44,791 bases of DNA. It comes from an uncultured Candidatus Saccharibacteria bacterium (GTDB lineage Bacteria; Patescibacteriota; Dojkabacteria; J137). The position numbers were made by a program, and so were the translations under genes. The DNA lies in NCBI GenBank assembly GCA_964445405.1, contig CAYUKX010000002.1:1-44791 (forward strand), read 5' to 3'. Of the stretch, positions 1,607 to 25,619 are shown one piece after another (position 1 is the stretch's first letter; each line of letters begins with the position of its first letter). Under the pieces are notes generated by a model. The model had not been told where the DNA came from. It made no database searches and saw only the letters and a program-made list of their open reading frames with translations.

Positions 1607-2872
1607 TTATTTTTGCTTAAGCTGATCTATTTCTTTTTTTAGTTCCATCATTCTGATTTCTCTATCCACCATTAATTTATTGAGTTTTTCGTATTCTGAG
1701 ATTTTTTCTGATAACTGGGAATTACGTTTTACAATATCTGTAATTTCAAATTCGGTAGCGATATAACCTATTAACTTTCCATCTTCGCTTAATGGTGAAA
1801 TATTCACACGAGCAATATATATTTCTCCGTTTTTTCTTCTGTTAACTATCTCTGATGTAAAAGATTTTTTATCATTTTTTATAGTATTCCACATCTCAAT
1901 ATAAAATTCTTTGGTCATAAGTCCGCCCCAAAGTCTAGGTGTGTAGCCAAGCATTTCTTTCAATTTAAATCCTGTTGCTTTTTCAGCAGCTGCATTTGCG
2001 TATAATATTCTACCTTCAGTATCCGTTAATGCTATGTGTGAAGAAAACATATCCGCAGCAAGTTTAAATAACGATTTATCATTTTGCTCATTTAGCAAAT
2101 TTATACGATCAATAAAAATTTGCTTGTGGGCTTTAAATTCATCCATCTGTATTTTATCTGGATTAATATTCTGTTTCTCAAGAATTGAATATACAGAATC
2201 AATCATATCTTCTGGTCCAGATAAATACCAAAGCGCATCGTTAATAGATATATCAAATTCCTCAAGGTTTTTTTCTATAAATCCCCAGTTAAGTTTTTCA
2301 CCTATTAGTTCGTATACTCTATGATTGGGATTTGACTTGACCATCTCTTGAATTTCGTCAGAGTAAACTCTTCGATCATTTGATGCATTGTTAACAAAAA
2401 GTAAGAACTTTCTTTGATTATTTGTATTTGCAGATTCTCTTAACATTGAGATGAATGGAGCAATGCCAACACCGCCTGCTATTAATACAGTTGGGACCAT
2501 AACTTCGGGTAATATAAAAAAGCCTCTTGGTCCGAAAATCGAAAGTTCATCATCCACTTTTAAACTCAAGAGAGTTTTTTTATATCCACTATCTGATTTT
2601 CTAAATACTATTGAAATATTCTTTTTATTATTTTCTCTAGATATAATTGAAAATGCTCTTAAATTGCCCCGCGGATCTTCTTCTATTAAATTCTCAAGTT
2701 CAACCCATAAATATTGGCCTGCTACAAATTCCATTTCTTGATCTAATTCAAGGTCATATTCAAATGTGTTTGGTACTATCTCCTTTATCTTTGTAATTTT
2801 CCCCTTAAAAGAAAGTAGAGCACTTTTATTTACATATTCAAAAACATCTAATTCTCTTAAATAGCTTTCCAT
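1607..2872 (-). CDS. Fusion protein: FNR-like FAD/NAD(P)-binding oxidoreductase module + PAS domain + C-terminal coiled coil
   Basis: The N-terminal half has the ferredoxin-reductase-type pattern (RAFSIIS = RxYS-like FAD motif; LIAGGVGIAPFISMLRE = NAD-binding GGxGxxP). Residues ~265-385 are PAS-like (TDTEGRILYANAAAEKATGFKLKEMLG..NRRKNGEIYIARVNISPL). The tail is K/E-rich and heptad-like. There is a 5-nt gap to the upstream kinase gene. Confidence 0.7.
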   Translation of the reverse strand: MESYLRELDVFEYVNKSALLSFKGKITKIKEIVPNTFEYDLELDQEMEFVAGQYLWVELENLIEEDPRGNLRAFSIISRENNKKNISIVFRKSDSGYKKTLLSLKVDDELSIFGPRGFFILPEVMVPTVLIAGGVGIAPFISMLRESANTNNQRKFLLFVNNASNDRRVYSDEIQEMVKSNPNHRVYELIGEKLNWGFIEKNLEEFDISINDALWYLSGPEDMIDSVYSILEKQNINPDKIQMDEFKAHKQIFIDRINLLNEQNDKSLFKLAADMFSSHIALTDTEGRILYANAAAEKATGFKLKEMLGYTPRLWGGLMTKEFYIEMWNTIKNDKKSFTSEIVNRRKNGEIYIARVNISPLSEDGKLIGYIATEFEITDIVKRNSQLSEKISEYEKLNKLMVDREIRMMELKKEIDQLKQK

Positions 2873-2877
2873 ATTGT

Positions 2878-4965
2878 TTATTTAATAGGTAACTTAATAG
2901 TAAATGTTGTACCCTTGCCTTCTGTAGAAACAAAAGACAATTCACCAGAATGTGCCTCTATAATAGATTTTGTAATATATAACCCAAGACCTGTCCCTTC
3001 TTGTGTCATTGCATTTTTAGCTCTGTAGAATCTTTCAAATATTCTGCTCTGTTCATTCTTAGGTATTCCAAGACCATCATCTGTAATCTCTATGTAAGCG
3101 TATTCATTATCTTTATGCAATTTTATGTTTACATTTCCACCTTCTTTAGAATATTTAATTGCATTAGTTACAACATTCGAAATAGCTTCGGAGATTTTAA
3201 AGTCATCAACTGGAATTTTGTAACTATCTTTTTTATTATATTCATAATTTACTTTGACTTCATCATTGCTAGCAAGCATCTTAGTACCTTCAATAATTTT
3301 TGCAATAAGTTCTACTAAATCATTTCCTTTCTTTTCAATTGTAAAGTTCCTGCCTGTATCAATTCTTGAAACATCTAAAAGTTCTGCAACCAGGTGTATT
3401 AATCTTTCACTTGCCTCGGAAATAAAATTTACACTTGGCAGTATTTCTTTTGGAAGCTCCTTTTTAAAGTCCTCCATTATTTCTGTATGCCATTTTATTG
3501 TAGTTAGTGGAGTTCTTAACTGATGGGAAGCAATCGAAACAAACTCATCTTTCATTTTTTCTATTTGTTTTGTTCTAGTTACATCTTTTATAACAATTAT
3601 GCACTTTTCAACATTACTGTTTTTATCTAAATACGGTGCGCTAGATATACTTACACTTATTTTTTCGTTTTCTTTAGTAAGTAAATAGTATTTGTTTTCT
3701 GAAACTACTACTTCACCTTTATATGTTTCGTCTAAATACTGGGTATAAGGTACTTCCTTTTTCTCCTCTATGATTTTTATTTTGGATGAATAAGCTTTTT
3801 CAAGCAGATCCTCTTGCTTATACTTTGTTAATTTAAGAGCAGCTTTATTAACAATTTTTATATGTTGATGCTTATCTAAAACAATAACTGCATCTGCAAT
3901 GTTTTCAAGTATTGTCTTTGTTTCTTCCTCGCCCTTAGTGGCAATCTTTTTTTGAATATCGATATCTTCAAGCATATTTACCATTGCTCGCTGGTTTAAT
4001 TCCATGTTTTCTTGTTGTTCAGCAAGGTTATTTAATGCCTCTCTAAGCTGGGATTCTGTTTGCTTTATTGGTGAGATATTTTTTGCAGCAAAACTTACTA
4101 ACGTTTGTTCGGATAACTTTATAGGTGAAAGGTTAACAATTACCCAGAATGTTTGGTTGTATGTATCAACTAGTTGCAGTTCCCTTTCTACTTCTACATT
4201 ATTATTAATTACTCTTTCAATATCATTAATAAAAACATTCCTGAACTCCTTGGAGATATACTTAATTATTGACTTTTCGACCAGATCTTTTAGGTATCCT
4301 TCGCCCCAAAAAGCAATTGCATAAGAATTACTAGCTTTAATCTGTAGTCTATTATCCAGCAGAAAATATATATCTTTTCCGGAATTTGCTATGGATATTA
4401 AATAATTTTGTAAAGATTCTAGATACTTGGATTGTTGAATTTGCCTGACTTGAATATAGTAAAGTAAGGCACAAGCAGATATATAAAAAATAACATTAAT
4501 TACTTGTGGTGCAGGTGTTAAAAGGAATGTAATTAAGTAAGTAAGTAAAGCGGTAATAATTATTGCAGCTATCCCTCTTTTTTTTCTAATAGGTAAAATT
4601 AAGAAAATAATAGCTACTAGGTTAATAAATGGTGCTTCAGTATTTTTAAATGAAGTATAAGATATTAATATCAAATTACTAAGGTAAATAAATGCTACAA
4701 GAATATAAAGAAAAGTCTTGAGCATGCTCGCAAAAAACTTATTCAGTAACGACGTAGTAAATACCGCAATGCCGAAAATTAATACAACATTCGCAAGTTT
4801 TAGAAAAACTTGATTAACTTCTGAAGGTTCAATAATTAGTGCCGATATAGCTACATACTGAAGTAAACATACAATTATTACTCCAATTCGAGTGTTGGAT
4901 ACTTCAGATTTAGTCGAAATTTTATAGCTCTTTTCTAAAAAGAAATTCTTTAAGTTATTATTCAT
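2878..4965 (-). CDS. Membrane sensor histidine kinase (multi-TM N-terminus, two PAS-like domains, HisKA, HATPase_c)
   Basis: The first ~175 aa hold about 6 hydrophobic helices. H-box is FVSIASHQLRTPLT. N/G boxes are NAIKYS, DDGLGIP and GTGLGLYITKSIIEAHSG. Confidence 0.85.
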   Translation of the reverse strand: MNNNLKNFFLEKSYKISTKSEVSNTRIGVIIVCLLQYVAISALIIEPSEVNQVFLKLANVVLIFGIAVFTTSLLNKFFASMLKTFLYILVAFIYLSNLILISYTSFKNTEAPFINLVAIIFLILPIRKKRGIAAIIITALLTYLITFLLTPAPQVINVIFYISACALLYYIQVRQIQQSKYLESLQNYLISIANSGKDIYFLLDNRLQIKASNSYAIAFWGEGYLKDLVEKSIIKYISKEFRNVFINDIERVINNNVEVERELQLVDTYNQTFWVIVNLSPIKLSEQTLVSFAAKNISPIKQTESQLREALNNLAEQQENMELNQRAMVNMLEDIDIQKKIATKGEEETKTILENIADAVIVLDKHQHIKIVNKAALKLTKYKQEDLLEKAYSSKIKIIEEKKEVPYTQYLDETYKGEVVVSENKYYLLTKENEKISVSISSAPYLDKNSNVEKCIIVIKDVTRTKQIEKMKDEFVSIASHQLRTPLTTIKWHTEIMEDFKKELPKEILPSVNFISEASERLIHLVAELLDVSRIDTGRNFTIEKKGNDLVELIAKIIEGTKMLASNDEVKVNYEYNKKDSYKIPVDDFKISEAISNVVTNAIKYSKEGGNVNIKLHKDNEYAYIEITDDGLGIPKNEQSRIFERFYRAKNAMTQEGTGLGLYITKSIIEAHSGELSFVSTEGKGTTFTIKLPIK

Positions 4966-5022: not shown

Positions 5023-6135
5023 TTACTGACATTGAATTCCGTTAAGAGTAAAGTTGGAACTCAGTAATGGATTATTTGCTCCAGAATAACTCCCTTGGAA
5101 CCCGAAGGCTTGTGTTCCACCATTTGCCAGAATAATCTGGTTGTATACGGCATCATTTGCCGTTACTGCTGTTCCAGTTTGCGACCAAAGTGTATTCCAG
5201 GCATTAGTTATTACTTGGTTCCCAGTAAAATTCCATAATAAACTCCATGTACTAATATTATTTGCAGATATATTTGTAATTACAACATCGGCATTAAACC
5301 CATTCGCCCATTGACTAGTTATTGTGTAGTTAACTTGACAGTAATTTGAGTTTGGAACCCCTGGGTCTTCAATTACACCATCCAATATTGCGTCACAAGG
5401 GGAGCCATTAACTAAAATTATTGAATCCACAGGTGCATAATTATATCCTGTATAACTTGCTTCAAACCCAAACGTCTGAGACCCACCATCGGCAGCAATT
5501 AATGAATTATAGCCAAGATTAGTACCTGTAAATAAATTACCTGATTGTGACCAACCTGTATTCCATGCGTTCAATATTGTTTGATTCCCTGGAAAATTCC
5601 AAGTTATTGTCCAGCCATTAATATCAGTTGGAGTGTTGTTGGTAATAGTTACATCGGCTGTAAAGCCGTTTAAATATGCATTTGTAATTTTATATAACGC
5701 TGAACAATTCCCAGCTGTCATAATCTCAGGAACTTCGTCCCAAAGTGTGACTATCGTGGAGGGATTCACTGTTGAAATATGAGTATGAACTTTTCTAGTA
5801 ACATTTCTAACAGTGGAGGATGTGTTTATTTCCCGGTTAGTATTACCTGTACCAGTTATATTGTAAATAGTGCAGCTTTCTCCGCTAAAAGATAGAGTTT
5901 CGTTTCCTGTATAAGCAGTATTAAGTTTAAGTTTGTTTATGGCAATTTCGGCACAGCTATGTGCAAGGCTTCTGGCCTCTATAGAAGATAGTGAATTAAA
6001 GCTTGTTGTAAATGAATCATTCGAAACTAATATCGTAGAAGTAATAATCATTGCTGTAGCAATCATCAGTATTAAAACACTAGTTATAGTTGTAAAGCCT
6101 TTCTTTAATTTTTTATCTGAGTGTTGCTGTTGCAT
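5023..6135 (-). CDS. PilX/GspK-like minor pilin carrying two C-terminal CBM2 carbohydrate-binding modules
   Basis: The N-terminus KKGFTTITSVLILMIATAMIITS is a pilin-like hydrophobic helix without Glu5. Residues C144-C247 and C266-C369 each fit the CBM family 2 pattern (C..Y.I...W.NGF.ADV.ITN....I..W...WNF.GNQ.I.NAWN..WSQ.G..........YN..I...GG.Q.FGF..SY.G.N........NG..C). It is the last gene of the pilus operon and overlaps the preceding gene by 23 nt. Confidence 0.8.
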   Translation of the reverse strand: MQQQHSDKKLKKGFTTITSVLILMIATAMIITSTILVSNDSFTTSFNSLSSIEARSLAHSCAEIAINKLKLNTAYTGNETLSFSGESCTIYNITGTGNTNREINTSSTVRNVTRKVHTHISTVNPSTIVTLWDEVPEIMTAGNCSALYKITNAYLNGFTADVTITNNTPTDINGWTITWNFPGNQTILNAWNTGWSQSGNLFTGTNLGYNSLIAADGGSQTFGFEASYTGYNYAPVDSIILVNGSPCDAILDGVIEDPGVPNSNYCQVNYTITSQWANGFNADVVITNISANNISTWSLLWNFTGNQVITNAWNTLWSQTGTAVTANDAVYNQIILANGGTQAFGFQGSYSGANNPLLSSNFTLNGIQCQ

Positions 6136-6625
6136 AAAATGTTTGAGAATAATCCAGAGCTGGTTTCCCGGTTGTATTAATGTATGTTACTGTAATTTCT
6201 ATTCTTACTGACCCTACAGCAAAGTTTTCTGTTACATTTCTGAACGTAAGAGACGAAATAGTTACCCTATTAGAATTTAAAGTATTTGCAGGATTACTAC
6301 CTTCGGTAATGGTTATATTGCCTCCACTTAAAGCTATTCCTGTTGGACTGTTAGCCGCGCTAGCCATGACTAGTGATAGAGTACTTCCGCTATTCCCAAT
6401 TGTAGGTGTATTTACTGCACTTGCATTTCTAATGGTTTGAGTTAGTTTAGAAATTATAGATGTGGCTTCTGAACTAACAATCGACATAGCTTCGCCACGG
6501 TCTCGAGTATCGCTTGCTGTAACCCAAAGCATTGCAATCATTAATACTAGTACAGAAGTCAGTGACATATAAAGCAGAACTTCTATTAGTGTAAATGCTT
6601 TTTTTGTATTTATATTAGTTTTCAT
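6113..6625 (-). CDS. Minor (pseudo)pilin, PulJ/PilW-like, prepilin-type N-terminus
   Basis: N-terminus is MKTNINTKKAFTLIEVLLYMSLTSVLVLMIA (class III signal, Glu at +5). It has a 1-nt overlap with the upstream gene. Confidence 0.8.
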   Translation of the reverse strand: MKTNINTKKAFTLIEVLLYMSLTSVLVLMIAMLWVTASDTRDRGEAMSIVSSEATSIISKLTQTIRNASAVNTPTIGNSGSTLSLVMASAANSPTGIALSGGNITITEGSNPANTLNSNRVTISSLTFRNVTENFAVGSVRIEITVTYINTTGKPALDYSQTFYATATLR

Positions 6626-8022
6626 TAGTTTGGTTTGTAAATCATTACTTCTTGAGTATTATTGCTACCAACACCAAATACTCTGTCTAATAGAGGATTA
6701 TAGAAAACATCATTTAGGTTTCCGGTATAGGCCAAACTTCCAAATACTGTCGGGCTTGCAGCGTTCGTTGCATCATAAATTGTAAGTTGGGTAGAAGTAG
6801 CGTCTGCTTGAAAAATATATGGTAAAGAAACATCACCAGTTATTGATAAGCTTGTTGCTCCCACCGCAAATCCGGCACTATTTAATGCAGTTGGTGCAAG
6901 TGGATTAGTTATACTAGCTAAAGATATTGTTGTTCCCCTTTGCAATGCCACACCTAGAGAGTATCTAGCAATGTCCGCGGCATCTGTGTTCCCGGATAAA
7001 TCTAATCCACTTGCAAAAGCAGGTAGGGCGGGGTTAGATATATCGTATATGGTTAACTCAGCATTATTAGCCGAACTTGCAAGATACGCGTAGTTACCTT
7101 CAACCAAGAGTTTAAATATGTTTGCTGCTATTTGTGCGGATCCAAGCAGTGCAGGCGATGCAGGGTTTGTTAAATCGTAAATATATAATTCTGGATCTGT
7201 ACTTGTAGACCTTGTTAAATAGAGCCTATTGTTAAGAACAAAAACACCATTTGCATTGGCTGTTCCTGGCATGTTCACAGTTACAAGTGTTGGCGCAGTT
7301 GGAACAGTCACATCAACAATGTTTAGTTCATTCGTATTACTAGAAGATGCCAAATACACATAATTACCATAAGCTGCAATATCCGCTAAGGTCCCAGTTA
7401 TGCTTATTGTTCCTTGAATAACAGGTGCTGCTAAATTGCTAACATCAACAACAGTAAAATTACTTGCACTACCTGTTCTTGCAACAAATATTTTGTTCCC
7501 GAATTGAAGAACTTCAACAGCATCGGTTGTTCCTGAAAGGTCAATACCACTTTGCAAAGATACACTAGCCCAAGTTTCGTTTGTGGCTGTAGGTCGTTCC
7601 CAACTTGTAAGTTGAACAGTTGCATCTATTGCCCTAGAACTACTACTATTTTGCCAAGATACTGTAACGGTCACTTGTTTTGTATAGGCATCGATTGTCG
7701 ATATTTGTACCGCACGTGTAAAACCATCAACGGAGTCAGATGTTCCTACAAATGCCCAGGAACCAGCAGATAAACCTAAACCATATGTTCCATTAGTTAA
7801 ATTCGAATATGAATTATCTTTTATACTTGTAACTGCTTCTATTCCTTCCTCTAATAGAAAGTTGGCTTTGTTTTCTAAGTTCGCTTGTGATTGTGCAAAA
7901 ATACCATAAGAAAGTGAACCTGCAAGTGTAACAGCAATAATACTTATTAATGCCAATGCTAAAACTACTTCAACAGTAGAAAATCCTCTTAAGTTTTTAG
8001 AATGTAATTTGACCTTTAGCAT
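6625..8022 (-). CDS. Modular minor pilin: prepilin N-terminus fused to an LVIVD-repeat beta-propeller-like domain
   Basis: N-terminus LRGFSTVEVVLALALISIIAV has Gly -1, Phe +1 and Glu +5. The C-terminal ~315 aa contain repeated GNY(V/A)YLASS..NELNIVDV..P.AP / ELYIYDLTNPASP / ELTIYDISNPALP / QLTIYDATNAASP units, typical of LVIVD repeats (PF08309). Confidence 0.8.
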   Translation of the reverse strand: MLKVKLHSKNLRGFSTVEVVLALALISIIAVTLAGSLSYGIFAQSQANLENKANFLLEEGIEAVTSIKDNSYSNLTNGTYGLGLSAGSWAFVGTSDSVDGFTRAVQISTIDAYTKQVTVTVSWQNSSSSRAIDATVQLTSWERPTATNETWASVSLQSGIDLSGTTDAVEVLQFGNKIFVARTGSASNFTVVDVSNLAAPVIQGTISITGTLADIAAYGNYVYLASSSNTNELNIVDVTVPTAPTLVTVNMPGTANANGVFVLNNRLYLTRSTSTDPELYIYDLTNPASPALLGSAQIAANIFKLLVEGNYAYLASSANNAELTIYDISNPALPAFASGLDLSGNTDAADIARYSLGVALQRGTTISLASITNPLAPTALNSAGFAVGATSLSITGDVSLPYIFQADATSTQLTIYDATNAASPTVFGSLAYTGNLNDVFYNPLLDRVFGVGSNNTQEVMIYKPN

Positions 8023-8449
8023 TTACTGTTATTGTTTTTGTAATACCATTATTAGTTATATTTATAGCTCCAGTTGTATTTGGAGTACCGTGTAGTTTAT
8101 TAAAAACAACTTCAGTAACTCCTGTGACTGTAAAACGATTTCCAATACTCCATGCCCTATCAAATGTTGCATTTCGACCCGTAAAGCTACTGCCAGAAAA
8201 TACAATTACTTCATAGTTTGAAAAAGCTACACCCCAACTAGTATCATAAAACCCATCTTCAGAATAACTCTGTGCCATTTTTAAGCTTTTGTAGTAAATG
8301 TTTACTGCATCATCAATCTCACTTCTGTATAGAAAATTCTGGTACAAAGGGACACTCATGACGAATATTATCGCAATCAAAGACATTGACAATAATAATT
8401 CAAATAAGGTGAATGCTTTCTTTTTATTACTCAATCGGTTCATCATCAA
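7997..8449 (-). CDS. Minor pilin, GspH/FimT-like, prepilin-type N-terminus
   Basis: N-terminus is NKKKAFTLFELLLSMSLIAIIFVMSVPLY. It lies between pilC and the other minor pilins. Confidence 0.8.
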   Translation of the reverse strand: MMMNRLSNKKKAFTLFELLLSMSLIAIIFVMSVPLYQNFLYRSEIDDAVNIYYKSLKMAQSYSEDGFYDTSWGVAFSNYEVIVFSGSSFTGRNATFDRAWSIGNRFTVTGVTEVVFNKLHGTPNTTGAINITNNGITKTITVNAKGQITF

Positions 8450-9659
8450 TTATGATTAAATCTTGTTCAACTGTGGATGGAGTATCCTCAATTAAGTCAG
8501 GGTTATTTATAACATTTTCAGTTGGCGGCTGTTCTATAGATGCTGGTTGAATACCATCTGTCGTTAATGATGATATGTTACCTACAATATTATATAAAGG
8601 TAAAATAACTGCTACTGCAACAAATGCAATTCCCGCCCAAATTATAATTATTAGTATTGGTTCAAATATAACACCAGCGTCTTTCAAACTAACTTCATTT
8701 CTTTTTTCAAAGGTTTCACCTATCAATAAAAAGTTTTCTGGTAGTTTTCCAGTTTTTTCACCAACTATAACCATTTCTCTTGCATATAAAGGAAGCATTC
8801 TTCTAACTCGTTTATCGTTATAGAAGATCTCTGAGAATTTATAACCTTTATCTATTAAAATACCCATATCGGTATATAATTTTTTGTAGCTCCTAAAACT
8901 TGTAGCATTCGCAAGTAATAACAAAGACTCTGATGGCGAAATTCCCGTTTCAAACAAATTATTTAATAAATAACCAAATCTAGTAATTTCTGTTTCCATT
9001 AATACATTCTTCAGAATTGGAACTCTAAATAATATTGAATCACCTATATGTTTAGTTTTCTTATTTATGAATAGTGTATAAATTGTGAATAACAACAAGA
9101 ATATAAATAGTGGAACGGCAATAACGCCATACTTGTCAAAGAAATCGCCTACAGCAATCAATATTTTTGTGATGGTAGGTAATTCAACGTTTAAGCTTTT
9201 ATAAATTGTGGTTAATCTTGGTAATACAAAGCCAACCATTACCATAACTACAATTATTAGTAGAGTTAGTACAAAGCTAGGATACAAACTTGCAGATTTT
9301 ATTTTGTTAGAAAACTCATTATCCCTTTGCAGGTATTTAACAACGGTTTTTAAGTTCTTAGGTAGATTGCCGGTCTGTTCACCAATTTGAATTAATGCTA
9401 TTAAGTGATCACCAATATATTTTTCCTCTTTAAATATTTTCCATAATTGCTCTCCGTTTTCGACTCTAAGCCTTAACTTATTAATTAGTTTTTGAACGTT
9501 GGCAGATTTGGTTTCATGTTCAAGAGATTCAAGTATTGTATCTATATCAATACCTGCTGCAAGCATGTTTGCAATGTTTTCGAATAGGTAATTCTTATAC
9601 TTATTTACATTCAGCTCAATTGTAAAAAGCGAGTTTATTTTTTTTATTAATGAGTTCAT
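8427..9659 (-). CDS. pilC: Type IV pilus platform protein PilC (GspF family)
   Basis: It has two GspF-type half-domains, each with the conserved E.TG.LP motif (IGEQTGNLPKNL; VGEKTGKLPENF), and three hydrophobic helices. It shares an ATGA overlap with pilB. Confidence 0.9.
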   Translation of the reverse strand: MNSLIKKINSLFTIELNVNKYKNYLFENIANMLAAGIDIDTILESLEHETKSANVQKLINKLRLRVENGEQLWKIFKEEKYIGDHLIALIQIGEQTGNLPKNLKTVVKYLQRDNEFSNKIKSASLYPSFVLTLLIIVVMVMVGFVLPRLTTIYKSLNVELPTITKILIAVGDFFDKYGVIAVPLFIFLLLFTIYTLFINKKTKHIGDSILFRVPILKNVLMETEITRFGYLLNNLFETGISPSESLLLLANATSFRSYKKLYTDMGILIDKGYKFSEIFYNDKRVRRMLPLYAREMVIVGEKTGKLPENFLLIGETFEKRNEVSLKDAGVIFEPILIIIIWAGIAFVAVAVILPLYNIVGNISSLTTDGIQPASIEQPPTENVINNPDLIEDTPSTVEQDLIIIDDEPIE

Positions 9660-11347
9660 TTCTTATTTAACTTTCGTAAATTTTTATAAATCATCTTTTT
9701 TTCTATTGCTGGTGCAACTCTAAGTACTTCTTCAATTGTAGTTAGTCCCGCTCTAACTTTATCTAATCCGTCTTCAAAAAAAGATATTGCTCCATTTTCT
9801 TTTGCGACATTCCAAATTTCAGAACTTGAGCTTTTTGTTAGTATCAAACTTTGTAATTCGTCATTAATTTCAATTAATTCAAAGATTCCTATTCTTCCTC
9901 TATATCCTGTAAAATTACATTTCTGACACCCTTTACCAGAGTAAAGTCTTATCTTTTCATCTTTAAAATATTCTTTGCTGTACGGCATTAGCTCTTCTAG
10001 GTCATCATGAGTATATTCATGACTTACTTTACATGAATCGCATATTTTTCTAATAAGTCTTTGAGCAACAATTAGGTTTAAAGTTGATGCCAATAAAAAT
10101 GGCTCAATGCCCATATCAACAAGCCTTGGGATTGCGGTTGCCGCATCGTTAGCATGAAAAGTTGATAGTAATAAGTGTCCAGTTAACGCCGCGTTTACAG
10201 CTATTTCTGCTGTTTCTACATCTCGGATTTCTCCAACTAACATTACATTAGGGTCCTGTCTGACAATTGATCTTAGACCTCTTGCAAAAGTAATTTCGTT
10301 TTCTGCATTTACTTGTATCTGATTAATTCCTGGAATTCTAAACTCAACAGGATCTTCGATTGTAGTTATATTTATTTGGGGGTTTAAAAGAATTTTTATT
10401 ATAGAGTAGAGCGTTGTTGTTTTACCAGAACCTGTTGGGCCGGTTGTTAATATCATTCCGAAAGGTTTTTTATAAGCTTTTTCAAGTTTACTAAAGTTTG
10501 CTTCAGAGAACCCTAAATCCTTAATATTTAGGTTCTTTGTATAATTTGTCAGTATTCTAATTACAATTTTTTGTCCATCTAATACAGGAACAATAGATAC
10601 TCTTAAATCTACAGCGAATTTATCGTTTGAAAATCTAATAGCACCGTCCTGAGTTCTGTACCTTTGGTCAATTCTAATATTAGACATTACTTTTATTCTA
10701 TTTAGAATATTTTCGTAAAGCTGCACCGGAACTTCGCCAACTTCTCTAAGTAATCCATCAACTCTTATACGTAGTAATACTGTTTCTGATTGTGGTTCAA
10801 AATGAATATCTGAAGCTTTTAAATCGTATGCTTCACTAAATAATTCATCTAAAAATTTATTAGTAAAATCTGTCCCACTTTCAAAAATGGTATTAATTCT
10901 ATCCTGAAATGGATCTTTGAATCTTAATAAAATTTCATCAATATCTTCGGTTAGTGAGTAGAAAATTTCAACTTTATATTTTGGTATAACCGTTTCTAAT
11001 AGATCTTTTATTTCCTCAATCTGTTCAACTCTATCTGTGGTAACGCTTATTGAATAGTTATCGACTTTAAATGCTAAAACTCGATTTTCGTTAACTATAT
11101 CTTTTGGAATAATATTCAAAGTATCTTCTTTAATTTCACTTTTTTGAAGATTAAAGTAACCAACTTTAAATGTTTCTGCAATTGAATGCCCAATTATTTC
11201 TTTGCTGAAGAACCTTGCTCCAATTAAGTTATCAATGACTGTGCCTCTAGGGTAATCTGCCAGTGCCTTATTAGTATCTTCTTCGGAAATGTAATTATTA
11301 TCAAGTAGGGACTTAAGAATTTCTGTCTCTGATAGCGTACTTCTCAT
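9656..11347 (-). CDS. pilB: Type IV pilus assembly ATPase PilB (GspE family)
   Basis: Walker A is GPTGSGKTTTLYS. Asp/His boxes are VMLVGEIRD and LLLSTFHANDA. The tetracysteine motif is CDSC...CQKC. A GspE_N-like N-terminal domain is present. Confidence 0.93.
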   Translation of the reverse strand: MRSTLSETEILKSLLDNNYISEEDTNKALADYPRGTVIDNLIGARFFSKEIIGHSIAETFKVGYFNLQKSEIKEDTLNIIPKDIVNENRVLAFKVDNYSISVTTDRVEQIEEIKDLLETVIPKYKVEIFYSLTEDIDEILLRFKDPFQDRINTIFESGTDFTNKFLDELFSEAYDLKASDIHFEPQSETVLLRIRVDGLLREVGEVPVQLYENILNRIKVMSNIRIDQRYRTQDGAIRFSNDKFAVDLRVSIVPVLDGQKIVIRILTNYTKNLNIKDLGFSEANFSKLEKAYKKPFGMILTTGPTGSGKTTTLYSIIKILLNPQINITTIEDPVEFRIPGINQIQVNAENEITFARGLRSIVRQDPNVMLVGEIRDVETAEIAVNAALTGHLLLSTFHANDAATAIPRLVDMGIEPFLLASTLNLIVAQRLIRKICDSCKVSHEYTHDDLEELMPYSKEYFKDEKIRLYSGKGCQKCNFTGYRGRIGIFELIEINDELQSLILTKSSSSEIWNVAKENGAISFFEDGLDKVRAGLTTIEEVLRVAPAIEKKMIYKNLRKLNKK

Positions 11348-11871
11348 TTTTTATCAAAGTAATCTTTTAAAAATTCAACAATTTGTGAAAGTTGAAAATT
11401 TGATTTAATCCAGAAATCTATTGCACCTAAATCTTTTGTTTTTTCGATATCCTCTTCTTGGCTTAAATTAGAAAGTACAATTACTTCTGGAGGGTTCTTT
11501 AGTAGTTTTAGCTCTTTTAGGACTTCAAAACCATCTTTATTAGGCATTAAAAGATCTAATAGGATTAAATCATACTTATTCTCTTTAATCATTTTAATAA
11601 CCTCGTTGCCATCTCTAGCAATATCTATCTGAAACCCAGCGGCCCTTAGCTTTATGCTAAAAGCATTCGTAAGGGATTCTTCGTCTTCTGCAACAAGAAT
11701 TCTATAGGATTTCTTTAATGATTCTTCTTTCTTTTCATCATCTTTTATTTCCTTTTTTACTACAGGTTTCTCGTCAACTTCCACTTCCGGTTCGTTTTCA
11801 AGCATCTCTTTTATGCTTTTTCTAGGCTCTTCTTGTTTCTTTTTATTCTTCCCTAAGTCAGTGAATATCAT
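11344..11871 (-). CDS. Stand-alone CheY-like response-regulator receiver with K/E-rich N-terminal extension
   Basis: Sequence RILVAEDEE ... DLILLDLLMPNKDGFEVLKELK ... VIVLSN ... fits a receiver domain. There is no output domain. It is translationally coupled (ATGA) to pilB. Confidence 0.85.
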   Translation of the reverse strand: MIFTDLGKNKKKQEEPRKSIKEMLENEPEVEVDEKPVVKKEIKDDEKKEESLKKSYRILVAEDEESLTNAFSIKLRAAGFQIDIARDGNEVIKMIKENKYDLILLDLLMPNKDGFEVLKELKLLKNPPEVIVLSNLSQEEDIEKTKDLGAIDFWIKSNFQLSQIVEFLKDYFDKK

Positions 11872-11932: not shown

Positions 11933-12388
11933 CTATCTACTAACACTTATTGTTGCTGACTCTGCGTTTGGTGCAGCTACTGTAACTCTGTTAGATGCCG
12001 CTAAACAAATAGTATATCCAGTGTTTGCAGCAGTCCCACCGGTTGGGTCTTTAGGTATTCCTACTACATAGGTTGGTACAAGCAGTGTTGATAAATCAAT
12101 ATAGTCAGGATCCACTGTCGTTCCAATAATTAGTACATCAGTTGTGCAGTTAGGAATTGTTCCAAAATCACCAATAAGGTTCCCTGATTGTGATGTATAT
12201 TGAGTAACCGCATTTAGAATTTGGGTTACATCAGATCTTCTTTGTGTATTTCTAGCATCCTGAAAATTCTTTGCAGGGTTAATTGCAATAATGGTAATGG
12301 CAGCTAAAAATCCAATTAAAGCAATTACTACAAGAACTTCGATTAATGTGAATGCTTTTTTTGTTTTGTTTGGTTTGTATTCCTTCAT
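11933..12388 (-). CDS. Type IV major pilin, paralog 2
   Basis: N-terminus is KTKKAFTLIEVLVVIALIGFLAAITIIAINP. It is 59 aa identical to the neighbouring paralog and shares the C-terminal ESATISVSR. Confidence 0.9.
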   Translation of the reverse strand: MKEYKPNKTKKAFTLIEVLVVIALIGFLAAITIIAINPAKNFQDARNTQRRSDVTQILNAVTQYTSQSGNLIGDFGTIPNCTTDVLIIGTTVDPDYIDLSTLLVPTYVVGIPKDPTGGTAANTGYTICLAASNRVTVAAPNAESATISVSR

Positions 12389-12406: not shown

Positions 12407-12847
12407 TTATCTACTTACTGAAATTGTCGCACTTTCTCCACCAGGAGCCGATACAGTTACTCTTCCTCCAGTAGTTAAACATATATCGTAACCAGTATCT
12501 GTTACAGTACTTATACTTGGATCGTTAGGTATTGCAACAACATATGTTGGTACAAGGTTTGTTCCTAGATTCACCATACCGACTGCAGTTCCAATGTTTG
12601 TAGTCGTAGGGCAAGTTGCAATGGTTCCTAATCCCGATAGGGTGTTGCCTTGTTGAGTTGTATATTGAGTAACCGCATTTAGAATTTGGGTAACATCAGA
12701 TCTTCTTTGAGTATTTCTAGCATCCTGAAAGTTCTTCGCAGGGTTAATAGCAATAATAGTAATAGCAGCTAAAAATCCAATTAAAGCGATTACTACCAGA
12801 ACTTCGATCAGTGTAAATGCTTTTTTCGTTTTATTTCTGTTGTTCAC
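12407..12847 (-). CDS. Type IV major pilin, paralog 1 (GTG start)
   Basis: It has the same prepilin N-terminus and is the first gene of the pilus operon. The start codon at 12845-12847 reads GTG on the minus strand. Confidence 0.9.
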   Translation of the reverse strand: MNNRNKTKKAFTLIEVLVVIALIGFLAAITIIAINPAKNFQDARNTQRRSDVTQILNAVTQYTTQQGNTLSGLGTIATCPTTTNIGTAVGMVNLGTNLVPTYVVAIPNDPSISTVTDTGYDICLTTGGRVTVSAPGGESATISVSR

Positions 12848-12970: not shown

Positions 12971-14443
12971 ATGTTGCAAAAATTAATAATGTCTGATCCA
13001 AAATTTGCTACAAAATTATTAAATAGCAAAGGAAGGAGTGCTGCTTTAAAAGCGTTTAAAGATGCTGCAAAATTACCAGCTTACTTGGAACTTTTGAAAA
13101 CACATAATGTAAGTATTAATGATATTCATTCAGTAGCGGATTTTGTTAAATTACCAATTCTTGATAAAAAAAACTATATTAATGCGTTTCCATTGGAAGA
13201 TCGAATAAAGTTTAAGATGTATAAAAACTATACAATTGAGCGAAGTAGCGGGTATTCAGGTGAGCCAAACTATTGGGTAAGATTTAGCGGACAAGATGAC
13301 GCTACTGAAAAACGAATAGTTGAATTAATAGATAAGATTTTTGAAATAAAAACTAAAAAAACCTTAATGATTAATACTTTTGCAATGGGAACTTGGATTG
13401 CTGGCATTAAGTCGGCTAGATGGTTTTTGAATGCAGCAAACAATAAAGATTTAGATTTAACAGTTGTAAATGTTGGAATCAACCTCGAGGAATCCATTGA
13501 GATTTTCAAAAAGTTCTACAAGCACTACGATCAAACTATATTTATGGGCTACAATCCCTTTTTAAAACAAATTGTAGATAAGATCTCAGGACAATACGAC
13601 CAATCACATGTTGTACATCTTTTAATGGGTGGCGAAGGCTTTTCAGAAGATTGGCGAGACTATATTGCTAATAAATTAGGCTATAGAATTGAAGATTTTA
13701 AGGGGAAAGTAATATCAGGTTATGGTGCAGCGGATATGGGCAATGATATAGGAGTAGAGCAACCGTTTTCTATTATGTTGCGAAGGGCATTTACAAAGAA
13801 GCCTGAGTTAATGAAGAAATATATAGGAGAAGTTGGGGATTTTGTCCCACTAATGTTTCAATATTCTCCTACTAAAGTATTTGTGGAGACAAATGATGCA
13901 CAAGAGCTAATTTTTACTGCAAATAGTGGAGCACCTCTTGTCCGCTATAATTTGCACGATAAAGGCGGTACAATTAGTTATCTTGATGCTTTAAGTATTG
14001 TTGAGGAAGTTTATGGTAAGGATTATGTTAAAAATGTACTTAAGCCTATGCCACTTCCAGTTATCTTCTTGTACGGAAGATCAGACTCAACTATTCATGT
14101 AACTGGCGTTAATATTTATATGGAGCATATTAAGCAGTCAGTCAATAATAGAGATATTAGTGAATATACCACAGGACGATTCTATTGTTTTGTTGAAGAC
14201 GATGAAAATTATAATCAGAGATTTAATATGGTTATAGAAGCAAGAGACGTAAAATTAGCTGAAAACAAAAAATCTGTTATTCAAAAAAATATAACTACAA
14301 CAATAGCAAATCTAAACCAAGAATATAAACATTTATTAGAAACTAACTTCGAGTTGGCAAACCCAGTAATCAACTTCGTTTCAGAAGAGGAATTTGAAAA
14401 ATATAGTAGAAAAAGTATTAAAATAGTTTATAAAAAGAATTGA
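12971..14443 (+). CDS. Adenylate-forming enzyme, PaaK / coenzyme F390 synthetase-like (ANL superfamily)
   Basis: The N-terminal pattern (..DIHSVADFVKLPILDKKNYINAFPLEDR..) and the P-loop-like ERSSGYSGEPNYW at ~residue 90 resemble phenylacetate-CoA-ligase-family proteins (SSG[ST]TG.P). Size is ~490 aa. Confidence 0.55.
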   Translation: MLQKLIMSDPKFATKLLNSKGRSAALKAFKDAAKLPAYLELLKTHNVSINDIHSVADFVKLPILDKKNYINAFPLEDRIKFKMYKNYTIERSSGYSGEPNYWVRFSGQDDATEKRIVELIDKIFEIKTKKTLMINTFAMGTWIAGIKSARWFLNAANNKDLDLTVVNVGINLEESIEIFKKFYKHYDQTIFMGYNPFLKQIVDKISGQYDQSHVVHLLMGGEGFSEDWRDYIANKLGYRIEDFKGKVISGYGAADMGNDIGVEQPFSIMLRRAFTKKPELMKKYIGEVGDFVPLMFQYSPTKVFVETNDAQELIFTANSGAPLVRYNLHDKGGTISYLDALSIVEEVYGKDYVKNVLKPMPLPVIFLYGRSDSTIHVTGVNIYMEHIKQSVNNRDISEYTTGRFYCFVEDDENYNQRFNMVIEARDVKLAENKKSVIQKNITTTIANLNQEYKHLLETNFELANPVINFVSEEEFEKYSRKSIKIVYKKN

Positions 14444-19382: not shown

Positions 19383-21383
19383 ATGAAAGCTACCTTTCTT
19401 TTTGTCTTTATTGTTTTATTGTTTGGCTACAGTTCAAAAATACAAGCTGATACTAATTTAATAGTAAATGAGATTCTTCCTGATGCCACAGGTGCAGATT
19501 CGGGCAAGGAATATGTAGAACTGTATAATATTAGTGATACTGACATTAATCTAAATAATGCATATCTCATAAATACATCCCAGTCAGGTACATCTAAAAA
19601 AATACTATTACCATCAAGTAAAATATCCGCAAAATCTTATTTCGTTTTTTCTGAGGATCTAAGCTTATTACAAATTAGTAATGGGTTATCACTTGGTAGT
19701 GGAAAAATAGCTTTATACAACGACTTTGCAAAACTTGAACTTTATAATGAAAATGTAATTCTACATGCAGTTAATTACGGAGATTCTAAAGAGGGTATTT
19801 CGTGGGAACTTGATGGCCCAGTCTGTAATAATTTACAATATTCGCAACAAAACAGCGCTGGAGTTTTTAATTCGGTAGGTGCTCAAAATTGCTTTGAAGT
19901 TGTCGAATCTGTTGTTTCTTATCCTGAAGTAAGTATTGCACAACCACTCATAAAATTTTCTTTAGATGGAGTAGTCTGGAGTGATACTATTTCCACATTT
20001 ATTAATAGGGATGTTTATTTTAAATATATAACAGATACAAATTCAGTGCCAAATTCAGTTATATGGTCAGATGCTTATGGAAACGTTATTACATCCCCTT
20101 ATAAATTTAGTTCCGTTTATAACAAAGGGCTAAGTGTAGAAATTGACTACAATAGTCAGTCTGTACAAGCCAAGAGTTTTGATATAAATATTGAAAATAA
20201 TATTTCTAATAAAGTTTTAATAACTGAAGCTTATCCTAGTCCTGATACCGGAGATAGTGAATGGATAGAATTGTACAATAATGATGTTATGACAGTTGAT
20301 TTAGCAAACTATATTCTTGAAGAAAAAAGTTCTAGTGGAGTTACAAATAGACGAATACCAATTGGAAGTTTTTTGCTGGCACCGAAGTCCTATTATGTAA
20401 TTTATGAAGAGGATTTTAATATTAGCCTAAACAATTCAGGAGATGAAATTTACTTAATTGATATTAATAATAATCAAATTGATAAATTCATTTACAAGCA
20501 AGTTCCTAATTCACAATCAGTAGGGCGGAAACTTAACGAAGAGTCTTTCAGTAATGAAACATTTGAATCATTCAGTCCTACACCAAATAAGCCAAATGTA
20601 TTTGGTGAATCTTCAAAACCTGTTTTGACGTATCAATCCCTAGGCAACATTAGCTCGCTTGAAGTAGGGAGTGAGTTCTTATTTAATGTAAATATTGTTA
20701 GCTTTATTGATAGGTATATTTTTATTCAAGATAGTAGTGCAACAATTAAGGCTAAACTTACTGTTCCACTTGAGAGTGATCTTATAAACACATACGTACA
20801 GTTAACTGCAAAAGTAATTAACTTAAACGGTTCAATCAACTTAGAAATTAACCCAGAGAATATTAAGGTGCTTGATTACCTTAACCTTACTCCGTCAATT
20901 ATTTCTGAATTATTACCAACTACTGATTCAATTGGAAGATTAGTGAGTTTTACAGGTGTTATAGACCAAGTATACGACAATCGTGTTAAGGTAAAACTAC
21001 AAGACCAATTGTTTAATGTTTACTTTAATACTCCTGTAAATACTCTTATCATTAAAAAAGGTTCTACAATAAATGTTACAGGCGTTATTGATTACTACAG
21101 AGCATCATACAGAATCATTGCAAATGAATACACTATTCCTGAAGTATTATCAGAATCAATTAGTGTAAGTTATCCAGTATCGTATTTAACTAAAGCAAGC
21201 TCATTAATACCGCAAAGTTACCCTGAAGATAATTCTCGTATTTATTTAGTAGCCTTTGGATATGTTGCACTGCTCTTTATTTTTGTTATTGAAATAGTAA
21301 ATAATAGAAAGTATTTAATTAAAAGATTCAACAAGATAAAAAGTAAAATAAAAATATTTAACAGACCCATGATAAAATATTAG
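19383..21383 (+). CDS. Secreted protein with two lamin-tail domains (LTD), OB-fold-like C-terminal repeats and a C-terminal anchor
   Basis: Signal peptide is MKATFLFVFIVLLFGYSSKIQA. LTD signatures are LIVNEILPDATGADSGKEYVELYNISDTDINL and VLITEAYPSPDTGDSEWIELYNNDVMTVDL. The C-terminus reads IPQSYPEDN + TM + K/R tail. Confidence 0.75.
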   Translation: MKATFLFVFIVLLFGYSSKIQADTNLIVNEILPDATGADSGKEYVELYNISDTDINLNNAYLINTSQSGTSKKILLPSSKISAKSYFVFSEDLSLLQISNGLSLGSGKIALYNDFAKLELYNENVILHAVNYGDSKEGISWELDGPVCNNLQYSQQNSAGVFNSVGAQNCFEVVESVVSYPEVSIAQPLIKFSLDGVVWSDTISTFINRDVYFKYITDTNSVPNSVIWSDAYGNVITSPYKFSSVYNKGLSVEIDYNSQSVQAKSFDINIENNISNKVLITEAYPSPDTGDSEWIELYNNDVMTVDLANYILEEKSSSGVTNRRIPIGSFLLAPKSYYVIYEEDFNISLNNSGDEIYLIDINNNQIDKFIYKQVPNSQSVGRKLNEESFSNETFESFSPTPNKPNVFGESSKPVLTYQSLGNISSLEVGSEFLFNVNIVSFIDRYIFIQDSSATIKAKLTVPLESDLINTYVQLTAKVINLNGSINLEINPENIKVLDYLNLTPSIISELLPTTDSIGRLVSFTGVIDQVYDNRVKVKLQDQLFNVYFNTPVNTLIIKKGSTINVTGVIDYYRASYRIIANEYTIPEVLSESISVSYPVSYLTKASSLIPQSYPEDNSRIYLVAFGYVALLFIFVIEIVNNRKYLIKRFNKIKSKIKIFNRPMIKY

Positions 21384-24290: not shown

Positions 24291-25457
24291 TTAGTTTTTT
24301 CGTCGGTATTTAGTTCCTATTAAATTTGCGACTATATCTTCTCCTATTTGAAATCTAAAAGTGATTATTGCAATTAAAATAAATATAAATCCTATAAATA
24401 CCAACCCTATACCATCGCCTAACGCTGTGTTTGGTAGAGCGTTGTTATTAGTAGAATTTGCTGTATTTGATGTTGGTATTGCACAAGAGTGTTTTGATAA
24501 TAATGCAAATGTGTTGGTGTTGCCTGTGGTGTTGCTTGTATTATAAGTTACAGTTGTACTAGAATTTGTTCCATTCTGAAATGTAGATAATTTTTCTTTA
24601 GGAATTTTAAGTTCATAAGTAACTGTTTTAGTTTGATTCGCAGTATAAGTTCTAGCAGCCGAACTTTCTGCCCACGTAATTTTATTACCAGCAGTAGTAC
24701 CAGTGTTGCTTACATTTAAAGGGGTAATTCCATTCGTAACTAATGTATTGTCAAATGTTTCTTCAACTTTTGTTATAGTTCCACTAACGGTGCTTATATT
24801 TGTAATACTAATTGTATACTTTATTAATGCATCACCTGAAGTTTCGCATGTGGCTGCGTAAGAGTTAGTAATTCTAAATTGTGGCTCAGCTAGCTGAGTT
24901 GTACCATTATTCGTATTATTATTTGTCCCAGTATTATTACCGGTATTCGAGTTTGTGTTTCCAGTCTGTGGAAATGAAGCAGGGAATGAGGCAGGAAAAG
25001 ATACTGGCGCAGTTGTTCCTGTGCAAGCAGTATTAAATTTTTTTATTGTAGTTCCGCATGCTCCTAGGGAATTTACACCAGATGTTTCAAGCTCTAAATA
25101 CATTTGAACCGTACCGCAAGTGACACCACCTAAATAGCTATTAAGGTTAACTGATCCACCTGAAGCAACTGGACTAATTGGAATTTCGATTGGATTACTT
25201 GAAATACATTTTTCATTGTCACGCTTTAATTCATTACAAAAGTGAATGTAAACTTTTGATGGATTACATACCCCTGACGGTATTGTACATGTGTTAGTAG
25301 TATTATTGCAGTTTGCAAGTATTGGATTTGTTTGTGCTCCTGTTTGACTTTGTAGGTTATTGTTATTAATCACTGAGCTGATTAATATACTTACCCCAGC
25401 CAATACTACAGTGGCAATAATAAGAATTGCGATTAGCAGTTTTCTATTCTTAGTCAT
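24291..25457 (-). CDS. Surface protein paralogous at both termini to the 776-aa protein; N/T-rich linker and DUF11-like domain
   Basis: I prefer the start at Met15 of the tracked ORF because MTKNRKLLIAILIIATVVLAGVSI parallels MSNRKKITLAILIFLTVILAGVSI next door. A DUF11-like pattern is present (GDALIKYTISITN.S..SGTITKVEETFD...KITW). The C-terminus is LPNTALGDG + TM + basic tail. Confidence 0.75.
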   Translation of the reverse strand: MTKNRKLLIAILIIATVVLAGVSILISSVINNNNLQSQTGAQTNPILANCNNTTNTCTIPSGVCNPSKVYIHFCNELKRDNEKCISSNPIEIPISPVASGGSVNLNSYLGGVTCGTVQMYLELETSGVNSLGACGTTIKKFNTACTGTTAPVSFPASFPASFPQTGNTNSNTGNNTGTNNNTNNGTTQLAEPQFRITNSYAATCETSGDALIKYTISITNISTVSGTITKVEETFDNTLVTNGITPLNVSNTGTTAGNKITWAESSAARTYTANQTKTVTYELKIPKEKLSTFQNGTNSSTTVTYNTSNTTGNTNTFALLSKHSCAIPTSNTANSTNNNALPNTALGDGIGLVFIGFIFILIAIITFRFQIGEDIVANLIGTKYRRKN

Positions 25458-25619
25458 TATTTTATGTTTAAACTCAACATAGTATTGCAGAAATTGCATT
25501 GAGTGTCAAAGCTCATTAAATACTGCTACAAAGGATTACACAGCCTATTTCAAATCAAAATTTGTAAATTGGGCTAAAACCGTATTTATTGTTAAAATTA
25601 CTTAATTTAAGTAATCAAA

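Follow-up and report, generated by a model that had tools for sequence, protein, structure and literature searches.

Type IV pili are the most conserved surface structure of the Patescibacteria (candidate phyla radiation, CPR). We examined a 44,791-nucleotide stretch of DNA from an uncultured Candidatus Saccharibacteria bacterium (assembly GCA_964445405.1, contig CAYUKX010000002.1; GTDB lineage Dojkabacteria, J137), referred to here as the window, which contains a type IV pilus operon in which one minor pilin appears to be continuous with a beta-propeller of LVIVD repeats. The locus raises two linked questions: whether pilin and propeller are truly one protein, and what a pilus would do with a propeller that is part of one of its subunits. 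The architecture, fold, conservation, and operon position of this protein, which we call the propeller pilin, were established by computation. We favor the reading that it is a modular type IV minor pilin whose propeller is displayed at the pilus tip and makes contact there with a surface or host, and we place the probability of this reading at roughly 0.6. The family to which the protein belongs bears on how the ultrasmall CPR/Patescibacteria recognize and hold hosts or substrates.

One gene encodes a pilin module and a propeller

The propeller pilin is encoded by a single open reading frame (ORF) of 465 amino acids with an ATG start (positions 6625 to 8022, minus strand). Its N terminus reads MLKVKLHSKNLRG|FSTVEVVLALALISIIAVTLAGSL and has the elements of a type IV prepilin motif: a basic leader of 13 residues (amino acids 1 to 13, MLKVKLHSKNLRG; 7984 to 8022, minus strand) that ends at the predicted prepilin peptidase site G|F, glycine at position −1, phenylalanine at +1, glutamate at +5 (Glu+5), and about 21 hydrophobic residues. 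Glu+5 was invariant in an alignment of 25 full-length relatives and in another of 37 pilin modules, and Gly−1 and Phe+1 were at least 90% conserved in both. An earlier reading of the same DNA (the original prediction) had called RG|FSTVE a canonical class III signal, a description that is right for the motif and too strong for the hidden Markov models (HMMs) PF07963 and TIGR02532, both of which match the protein below their cut-offs. A PF07963 match is present in several orthologs (e.g., P0025, P0033, and P0123), and TIGR02532 matches 17 of the 37 family pilin modules at an E value of ≤0.01.

The mature N terminus and alpha-1 helix (amino acids 14 to 70; 7813 to 7983, minus strand) consist of FSTVE followed by the hydrophobic assembly helix, and the profile of this region matches the N termini of solved pilins (Geopilin and PilA) in a PDB search. 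The beta-sheet region of the pilin module (7597 to 7812, minus strand) was placed by predicted strands and by sub-threshold NCBIfam matches. A linker of seven residues, RPTATNE (amino acids 143 to 149; 7576 to 7596, minus strand), then joins the module to the propeller and is bordered in the family alignment by an invariant tryptophan (W141) and a nearly invariant one (W151). Glycine, alanine, serine, and threonine together make up 40% of the propeller pilin, compared with 20 to 22% of PilB and PilC. This measure has also been applied to the TM7x pilins (PMC11623550), and here the composition supports a probable extracellular location.

The propeller occupies amino acids 150 to 465 (6628 to 7575, minus strand), exactly the range in which the repeats had been predicted. 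It matches PF08309 (LVIVD) with an E value of 1.1e-20 and 73.2 bits, where the gathering score is 20.2, and PF09826 (Beta_propel) with an E value of 3.5e-9. The original prediction counted at least five copies of the repeat; the repeats are real, and the count was too low. There are seven units in register, each of 43 to 47 amino acids (150 to 196, 197 to 240, 241 to 286, 287 to 330, 331 to 373, 374 to 420, and 421 to 465), of which four are strong (starting at G175, G219, N264, and G309) and three are degenerate. Together they constitute a predicted seven-bladed beta-propeller.

An AlphaFold2 (AF2) model built from a 25-sequence alignment had a mean predicted local distance difference test (pLDDT) score of 88.9 and a predicted template modeling (pTM) score of 0.68. 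Leader residues 1 to 12 were disordered (pLDDT, <50), and low values returned in the linker (<50 at residues 143 to 147). The pilin module was modeled as a 55-residue alpha-1 helix (16 to 70) and a small antiparallel sheet (78 to 139) with block pLDDT values of 83 to 95, which is the lollipop fold of type IV pilins. The propeller followed as ∼28 strands in seven groups of four (154 to 464), with block pLDDT values mostly above 90. Foldseek against PDB returned seven-bladed propellers with a probability of 1.00 and E values of about 4e-10 (beta-TrCP and other WD40 domains), as well as the propeller of a Sphingobium phosphotriesterase. Thus, the predicted LVIVD propeller was recovered both by HMM and by structure. 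PDB sequence searches with the whole protein and with the pilin module gave marginal matches only (pilin N termini and the phosphotriesterase propeller) and recovered no GspI or PilV structure, and the propeller pilin contains no RGD motif.

The fusion is genuine and widespread

Contigs from three independently assembled bioreactor-metagenome runs span the ORF and the junction between pilin and propeller with zero indels and zero substitutions, and relatives carry one gene in this place, not two. The original prediction of a single fused gene is borne out, and with three identical indel-free assemblies and hundreds of full-length homologs of the same architecture, a frameshift or assembly artifact is practically excluded.

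A first protein search returned 247 homologs, the best of which were 463 to 494 amino acids long with coverage of 97 to 100%. Those that were named came from Dojkabacteria, Uhrbacteria, Saccharibacteria, and Paceibacterota and were labeled “hypothetical,” [quoted passage not shown] or “Tfp pilus assembly protein PilV”; JGI likewise labels relatives of the propeller pilin “PilV.” A profile of 13 Saccharimonadia orthologs found 897 homologs, in which full-coverage forms of about 465 to 490 amino acids were dominant. Finally, a genome scan found relatives in 294 species-representative genomes, and the locus counts and median identities given below refer to the best 80 of these 294. The titles of these 80 genomes name Saccharibacteria, Paceibacteria, and Staskawicz-, Colwell-, Morani-, Gracili-, Kaiser-, Komeili-, Peri-, Peregrini-, Jackson-, Uhr-, Dojka-, Kerfeld-, and Nomurabacteria, along with WWE3, although a few belong to metagenome-assembled genomes that are evidently mislabeled. 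In about 70 of the 80, the relative is one ORF of 455 to 500 amino acids with G|FSxxE and full profile coverage. Environmental loci of the Saccharimonadaceae type also have an LVIVD pilin ortholog (e.g., L054, CP025011.1). The rarity that the original prediction implied was therefore overstated: the fusion is the rule in type IV pilus operons of Patescibacteria and had already been catalogued (PMC8179133). A scan of 185,579 species-representative genomes with patterns from the closest relatives, whose propeller pilins come from metagenome contigs and are 54 to 86% identical, gave no match, so the lineage of the window may have no close species representative for the two patterns scanned.

The family also varies around its dominant form. 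A propeller-free version of the same pilin module, 207 to 234 amino acids long, occupies the same operon slot in four loci (L079, L080, L085, and L086). Longer forms of 614 to 838 amino acids have two propellers or extra C-terminal domains (L058, L059, L067, L069, L073, L081, L083, and P0006); two or more propellers are present in P0006 (803 amino acids) and L058 (838 amino acids). Two proteins of 1,650 to 1,998 amino acids in the representative library (P0246 and P0253) are headed by the pilin module. LVIVD repeats as such are far more common, with matches in 72,300 representative clusters at an E value of ≤1e-3, and as most of these are giant non-pilin proteins, the number is not a measure of the size of the pilin subfamily.

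The propeller pilin has a fixed slot in a conserved operon

The neighborhood of the propeller pilin was nearly invariant across the 80 loci, and annotated contigs of relatives gave the same picture. The usual order is a response regulator, PilB, PilC, a pilin of ∼150 amino acids, the propeller pilin, a pilin of ∼170 amino acids, and a pilin of ∼135 amino acids, followed usually by the major pilin and then often by a PAS histidine kinase. The propeller pilin lies directly 3′ of pilB/pilC and between other pilins, both in the window and in some 75 of the 80 related loci. A homolog of the ∼150-amino-acid pilin was directly upstream in 79 of the 80 loci, and a homolog of the ∼170-amino-acid pilin was directly downstream in 76. 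Comparison with related type IV pilus loci gave the same fused architecture in the same operon slot.

In the window, these genes are all on the minus strand, and each adjacent pair in the stretch that begins with the response regulator and ends with the fourth minor pilin overlaps by 1 to 26 nucleotides. The operon is headed by a response regulator receiver protein (11344 to 11871), which matches the Response_reg genes of homologous loci and overlaps pilB by 4 nucleotides. The PilB-type assembly ATPase (9656 to 11347; T2SSE, E = 2.8e-120, with an MshEN domain) and the PilC-type platform protein (8427 to 9659; T2SSF, E = 5.6e-39) follow. Next come an H-type minor pilin of 150 amino acids (ComGD/GspH/FimT-like; 7997 to 8449; N_methyl, 24 bits, with weak ComGD and GspH matches), which overlaps the start of the propeller pilin by 26 nucleotides, the propeller pilin itself, and a J-type minor pilin of 170 amino acids (ComGF/GspJ-like; 6113 to 6625; weak ComGF and GspJ matches), whose start overlaps the propeller pilin stop by 1 nucleotide (TAATG). 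The fourth minor pilin is described in the next section but one.

Measured against the window proteins, median identities across the 80 loci were 48% for PilB, 35% for PilC, 34% for the first minor pilin, 39% for the pilin module of the propeller pilin, 35% for the third minor pilin, and 33% for the pilin module of the fourth. The propeller itself had a median identity of 32% over 99% of its length. Because this value is similar to that of PilC, the propeller does not evolve faster than the other parts of the machinery.

The window differs from the usual order in that both major pilin genes lie upstream of the response regulator. They are tandem paralogs of 151 and 146 amino acids (11933 to 12388 and 12407 to 12847, minus strand; N_methyl, 30.1 and 29.2 bits) with the predicted cleavage site KKA|FTLIE, that is, with alanine at −1. 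About 57 N-terminal residues (NKTKKAFTLIE...TQYT) and the last nine are identical in the two proteins, and the central globular part differs, which suggests that the gene was duplicated and that the exposed region diversified or underwent gene conversion.

At the tail of the operon are a PAS histidine kinase of 695 amino acids (2878 to 4965, minus strand), which matches HisKA/HATPase_c kinases at the same position in loci L087 and L088, and an FAD/NAD-binding PAS protein identified with Pfam (1607 to 2872, minus strand). These two loci share the whole gene order of the window and keep the set of receiver protein, kinase, and FAD/NAD-binding protein; in L004, an FAD-binding region, PAS domains, and the kinase are fused in one protein of 940 amino acids. 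This arrangement hints at redox-linked control of piliation.

The propeller is probably carried by an I-type subunit

We asked which minor pilin type (H, I, J, or K) the propeller pilin is closest to. When 37 family pilin modules were scanned against NCBIfam, the sub-threshold matches were to ComGE (27 modules), XpsI, which is a GspI (18 modules), PilV (12 modules), and GspI (6 modules). The pilin module of the window protein itself matched XpsI with an E value of 4.7e-5 over 118 of 132 model positions and ComGE with an E value of 2.3e-6, both far below the cut-offs. It occupies the second slot of an H-I-J-K order and keeps Glu+5, while the K-type pilin has none. Taken together, gene order and these weak matches make it probable that the quartet is H-I-J-K and that the propeller sits on the I-type (GspI/PilV/ComGE-like) subunit. 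The likeness to GspI, PilV, and ComGE lies in the size of the module (∼130 mature residues), Glu+5, the second position in the H-I-J-K order, and the recurrent weak HMM matches. It differs in that canonical members have no C-terminal extra domain and in that the window module matches all of them below curated cut-offs.

A neighboring pilin carries a probable second binding module

The fourth minor pilin of the window (5023 to 6135, minus strand) is a K-type protein of 370 amino acids that consists of a pilin module and two CBM2 domains (CBM_2 in two stretches, E = 9e-50). It lies two genes downstream of the propeller pilin, as had been noted in the original prediction. Absence of Glu+5 is a hallmark of the capping subunits of the GspK/PilX/ComGG type, and the K-type pilin of the window lacks it (G|FTTIT). 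K-type homologs elsewhere are about 135 amino acids long and begin with G|Y(I/V)TL(I/L)SVL, with a hydrophobic residue at +5 (mostly Ile or Leu).

The size of this subunit changes even among close relatives. L088, with a propeller pilin 59% identical to that of the window, has a CBM_2 pilin of 374 amino acids in the K slot, whereas L087, with a propeller pilin 54% identical, has a K-type pilin of 136 amino acids without CBM2. Most other lineages have the short K-type form, and some Saccharimonadales have forms of 340 to 357 amino acids with other additions. From the contrast between L088 and L087 and the short form in most lineages, it follows that the propeller is the ancestral conserved module and the CBM2 pair a recent lineage addition. 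The proposal of two distinct binding modules at the tip fits this anatomy, with a Glu+5-less K-type CBM2 pilin together with a Glu+5-bearing I-type propeller pilin; their place at the tip is itself a prediction. The window offers a clear example of a pilus that, as predicted, would have two different binding modules at its tip, and it is a candidate for asking whether the conserved propeller or the variable add-on sets pilus binding.

The CBM2 pilin also varies at a finer scale. At 5749 to 5851 (minus strand; approximately amino acids 95 to 129), runs X1 and X2 have 20 clustered substitutions, mostly spaced by multiples of three, and run X3 matches the window exactly. The cluster looks like a strain-level allele or a short tract of recombination where the pilin module ends, just before the first CBM2.

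A proposed role for the propeller at the pilus tip

We propose the following sequence of events. A prepilin peptidase encoded elsewhere would cleave the propeller pilin after Gly13, and the hydrophobic alpha-1 helix would then dock, at the PilC platform, with the three remaining minor pilins. The resulting minor-pilin complex would prime filament assembly and end at the pilus tip, where the Glu+5-less K-type pilin (with two CBM2 domains here) would cap the complex and the Glu+5-bearing propeller pilin would lie directly beneath it. The propeller would thereby be exposed at the tip as a built-in equivalent of PilY1, whose propeller diderm bacteria encode separately. As the conserved part of the tip, the propeller would contact the surface or host cell, while K-type add-ons (for example, CBM2, which would bind glycans of the cellulose, chitin, or xylan type) may give lineage-specific binding. 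Conservation of the propeller across phyla points to a conserved ligand or partner rather than a strain-specific receptor. We consider, more tentatively, that the LVIVD I-type pilin could be an ancestral, Patescibacteria-wide covalent substitute for PilY1 that serves as the conserved tip module with which these episymbionts first touch a host cell or a surface, with lineage-specific K- and J-type modules (two CBM2 domains here) tuning specificity. This broader proposal is doubtful at present, but if it is true, a single conserved attachment determinant would serve a radiation with a large share of bacterial diversity.

It is important to note that several points weigh against the favored reading. 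We infer the tip location, PilD processing, and ligand of the propeller pilin. The prepilin HMM scores are sub-threshold (PF07963, 13.1 bits against a cut-off of 21.2; TIGR02532, 11.2 bits against a cut-off of 16.3), and the I-type assignment draws on sub-threshold matches and gene order. The pTM score of 0.68 does not fix the orientation of the pilin module relative to the propeller, and the Foldseek neighbors, being generic WD40 and phosphotriesterase propellers, are uninformative on the ligand. For the window ORFs that were scanned, Pfam gave no prepilin peptidase, PilT, or PilMNO, and no RNA run was listed as containing the propeller pilin gene. Conservation across phyla with different hosts is unexpected for a host-specific adhesin. 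Finally, PilX2 of TM7x, a propeller-bearing minor pilin (see below), is treated as a functional analog set apart by its gene order and published description rather than as a demonstrated ortholog.

The main rival explanation keeps the same architecture and tip complex and holds that the propeller is mainly structural or regulatory, priming or stabilizing assembly and opposing retraction, as proposed for PilY1 together with the core minor pilins. Such a role would account for a propeller whose conservation matches that of PilC and the other minor pilins in phyla that presumably have different hosts, for an operon slot that is fixed in nearly all loci, and for the placing of variable add-ons on K- and J-type pilins instead (∼135 versus 340 to 370 amino acids), and PilY1 and minor pilins are known to prime assembly in Myxococcus (cited in PMC11623550). 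However, the propeller appears dispensable for the machinery, since the four loci with propeller-free forms keep both the module and the operon; the proteins with two or more propellers look like surface display; and TM7x without PilX2 still makes filaments. Given the propeller-free forms (207 to 234 amino acids) and the multi-propeller forms, we regard the propeller as a displayed module and not as an indispensable structural part, and we favor tip contact or adhesion over a priming or stabilizing role of the PilY1 kind, which we judge rather unlikely.

Tip contact also has to be set against two readings in which the propeller acts closer to the cell. If the operon encoded a short Com-like filament or pseudopilus, used to take up DNA or to secrete across the wall, and not an extended adhesive pilus, the propeller would take part in that process at the cell surface, and the best, though weak, matches of the four minor pilins to ComGD, ComGE, and ComGF would be explained, as would the lack of PilT and PilMNO among the nearby ORFs scanned and the Ala−1 site of the major pilins (KKA|FTLIE), which streptococcal ComGC also uses. 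GspI and PilV matches are about as frequent, though, and the operon comes with two major pilins of its own and a two-component system. The CBM2 domains on the neighboring minor pilin point to insoluble-glycan binding, no DNA-binding feature was found, and the thin-pilus system of TM7x showed no role in competence (PMC11623550), all of which makes a Com-like filament improbable. Less likely still is that the class III signal only anchors the propeller in the membrane and that the protein is never polymerized into a filament. LVIVD propellers are indeed very common in large cell-surface proteins, as the 72,300 clusters attest, and the prepilin HMM score is sub-threshold, but Glu+5 is invariant, a complete pilin fold is predicted, and the gene keeps its place next to a minor pilin gene on either side, with translational coupling to both.

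Other genes in the window

The BipA/TypA protein of the window has its best named matches (65 to 70% identity) almost exclusively in Candidatus Dojkabacteria, and metagenomic relatives reach 92%. Together with a GC content of about 32%, this makes a Dojkabacteria-related Patescibacterium from a bioreactor the likely host. Several other genes lie beyond the operon. Two genes at 21891 to 24221 and 24291 to 25499 (both minus strand) encode proteins of 776 and 402 amino acids that are predicted to be secreted or membrane anchored and match no Pfam family at an E value of ≤1e-4. The first is rich in Cys, Gly, and Thr, with many CxxC-like spacings, and the second is rich in Asn and Thr; the stretch that holds them has a GC fraction of 0.378, against ∼0.32. 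A protein of 666 amino acids at 19383 to 21383 (plus strand) has two Lamin Tail Domain matches (E = 7.9e-26) and is a probable surface protein. Two signal peptidase I genes (Peptidase_S26) overlap in tandem at 38644 to 39258 and 39255 to 39923 (plus strand). Divergent from the major pilin genes is an ORF of 490 amino acids at 12971 to 14443 (plus strand) that matches no Pfam family at an E value of ≤0.001.

Comparison with known systems

PilY1 is not a pilin but a protein apart, with a propeller family of its own (IPR008707, PF05567) and a Ca-binding site. Like the PilY1/PilC tip proteins of diderm type IVa pili, which are implicated in adhesion and assembly priming, the propeller pilin combines a seven-bladed propeller with four core minor pilins at the predicted tip; it differs in that the propeller is covalently part of a pilin. 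The contrast with PilY1 drawn in the original prediction is a fair one. We rejected membership of the PilY1 family: the propeller pilin has no Pfam match to a PilY1/PilC domain at an E value of ≤1, no PilY1 is among its top 50 Foldseek matches, and it has no EF-hand-like Ca site of the PilY1 type, with no D-x-[DN]-x-[DN]-G-x-x-D motif in its sequence. The LVIVD cell-surface proteins (Adindla et al. 2004; PMC2447325) belong to the same repeat family, which the propeller pilin matches far above the gathering score. They are typically large non-pilin proteins that carry a Sec signal peptide and, in many cases, several propellers, in contrast to the one propeller on a pilin in the window.

A counterpart within the Patescibacteria is PilX2 of TM7x (Nanosynbacter lyticus), a minor pilin reported to have a heptabladed propeller of RCC1 repeats and no predicted PilD signal (PMC11623550, PMC12206443). 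Deletion of PilX2 roughly halved host binding and reduced competitive fitness, and filaments were still made (PMC11623550). Both proteins are minor pilins of Patescibacteria with a C-terminal seven-bladed propeller, and both have been proposed as tip adhesins. The window protein, however, has a clear G|FSTVE and no RCC1 match (Pfam, E ≤ 1). The TM7x locus has the order pilA2, pilX2, pilW2, pilV2, pilZ2 (PMC11623550), by which PilX2 sits at the K slot, the slot of the CBM2 pilin in the window, while the propeller pilin is at the I slot. No Nanosynbacter or TM7x name occurs among the best 120 of the 897 matches to the Saccharimonadia profile. TM7x pilins are poorly conserved across Patescibacteria (PMC11623550), in contrast to the widely conserved LVIVD pilin family.

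The propeller pilin fits best among the modular pilins, that is, proteins with a pilin module, a short loop, and a domain that is not specific to pili. Two of the InterPro entries present among these proteins are IPR001919, which we take to be CBM2, and IPR000408, presumably RCC1. Raynaud et al. (2021; PMC8179133) defined the class and surveyed InterPro for it. Dataset S1 of that survey contains 30 proteins that combine IPR012902 with IPR013211, the LVIVD repeat, in 1, 2, 4, 5, 6, or 13 copies or in one mixed architecture, and in the text only a protein from Falkowbacteria is noted, in which this “motif of unknown function” occurs 12 times. The dataset also lists three proteins with IPR012902 and IPR001919, a few IPR000408 pilins, and a single pilin that has IPR008707, identified in the paper as the PilY1 propeller (PMC8179133). 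Beyond these IPR013211 entries, our literature searches returned nothing on LVIVD pilins as such. In Streptococcus sanguinis, PilB (a pilin with a vWA domain) is a proven adhesin, and PilC is a pilin with a lectin domain (PMC8179133); like them, the propeller pilin has a class III pilin module, a short linker, and a bulky non-pilus domain that the filament would display.

The window thus reveals no new kind of system: the modular minor pilins to which the propeller pilin belongs are a large class that had been catalogued before, and it is typical of them. The 2021 survey only counted the LVIVD class, whereas its fold, I-type module, operon slot, and spread among Patescibacteria were not described there. 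What our analysis adds to the survey is a family-level picture of LVIVD pilins, with a probable I-type module, a fixed slot, a broad distribution, and seven blades. It also sets the conserved propeller apart from the K-type add-on, which varies, and predicts a two-module tip in the lineage of the window.

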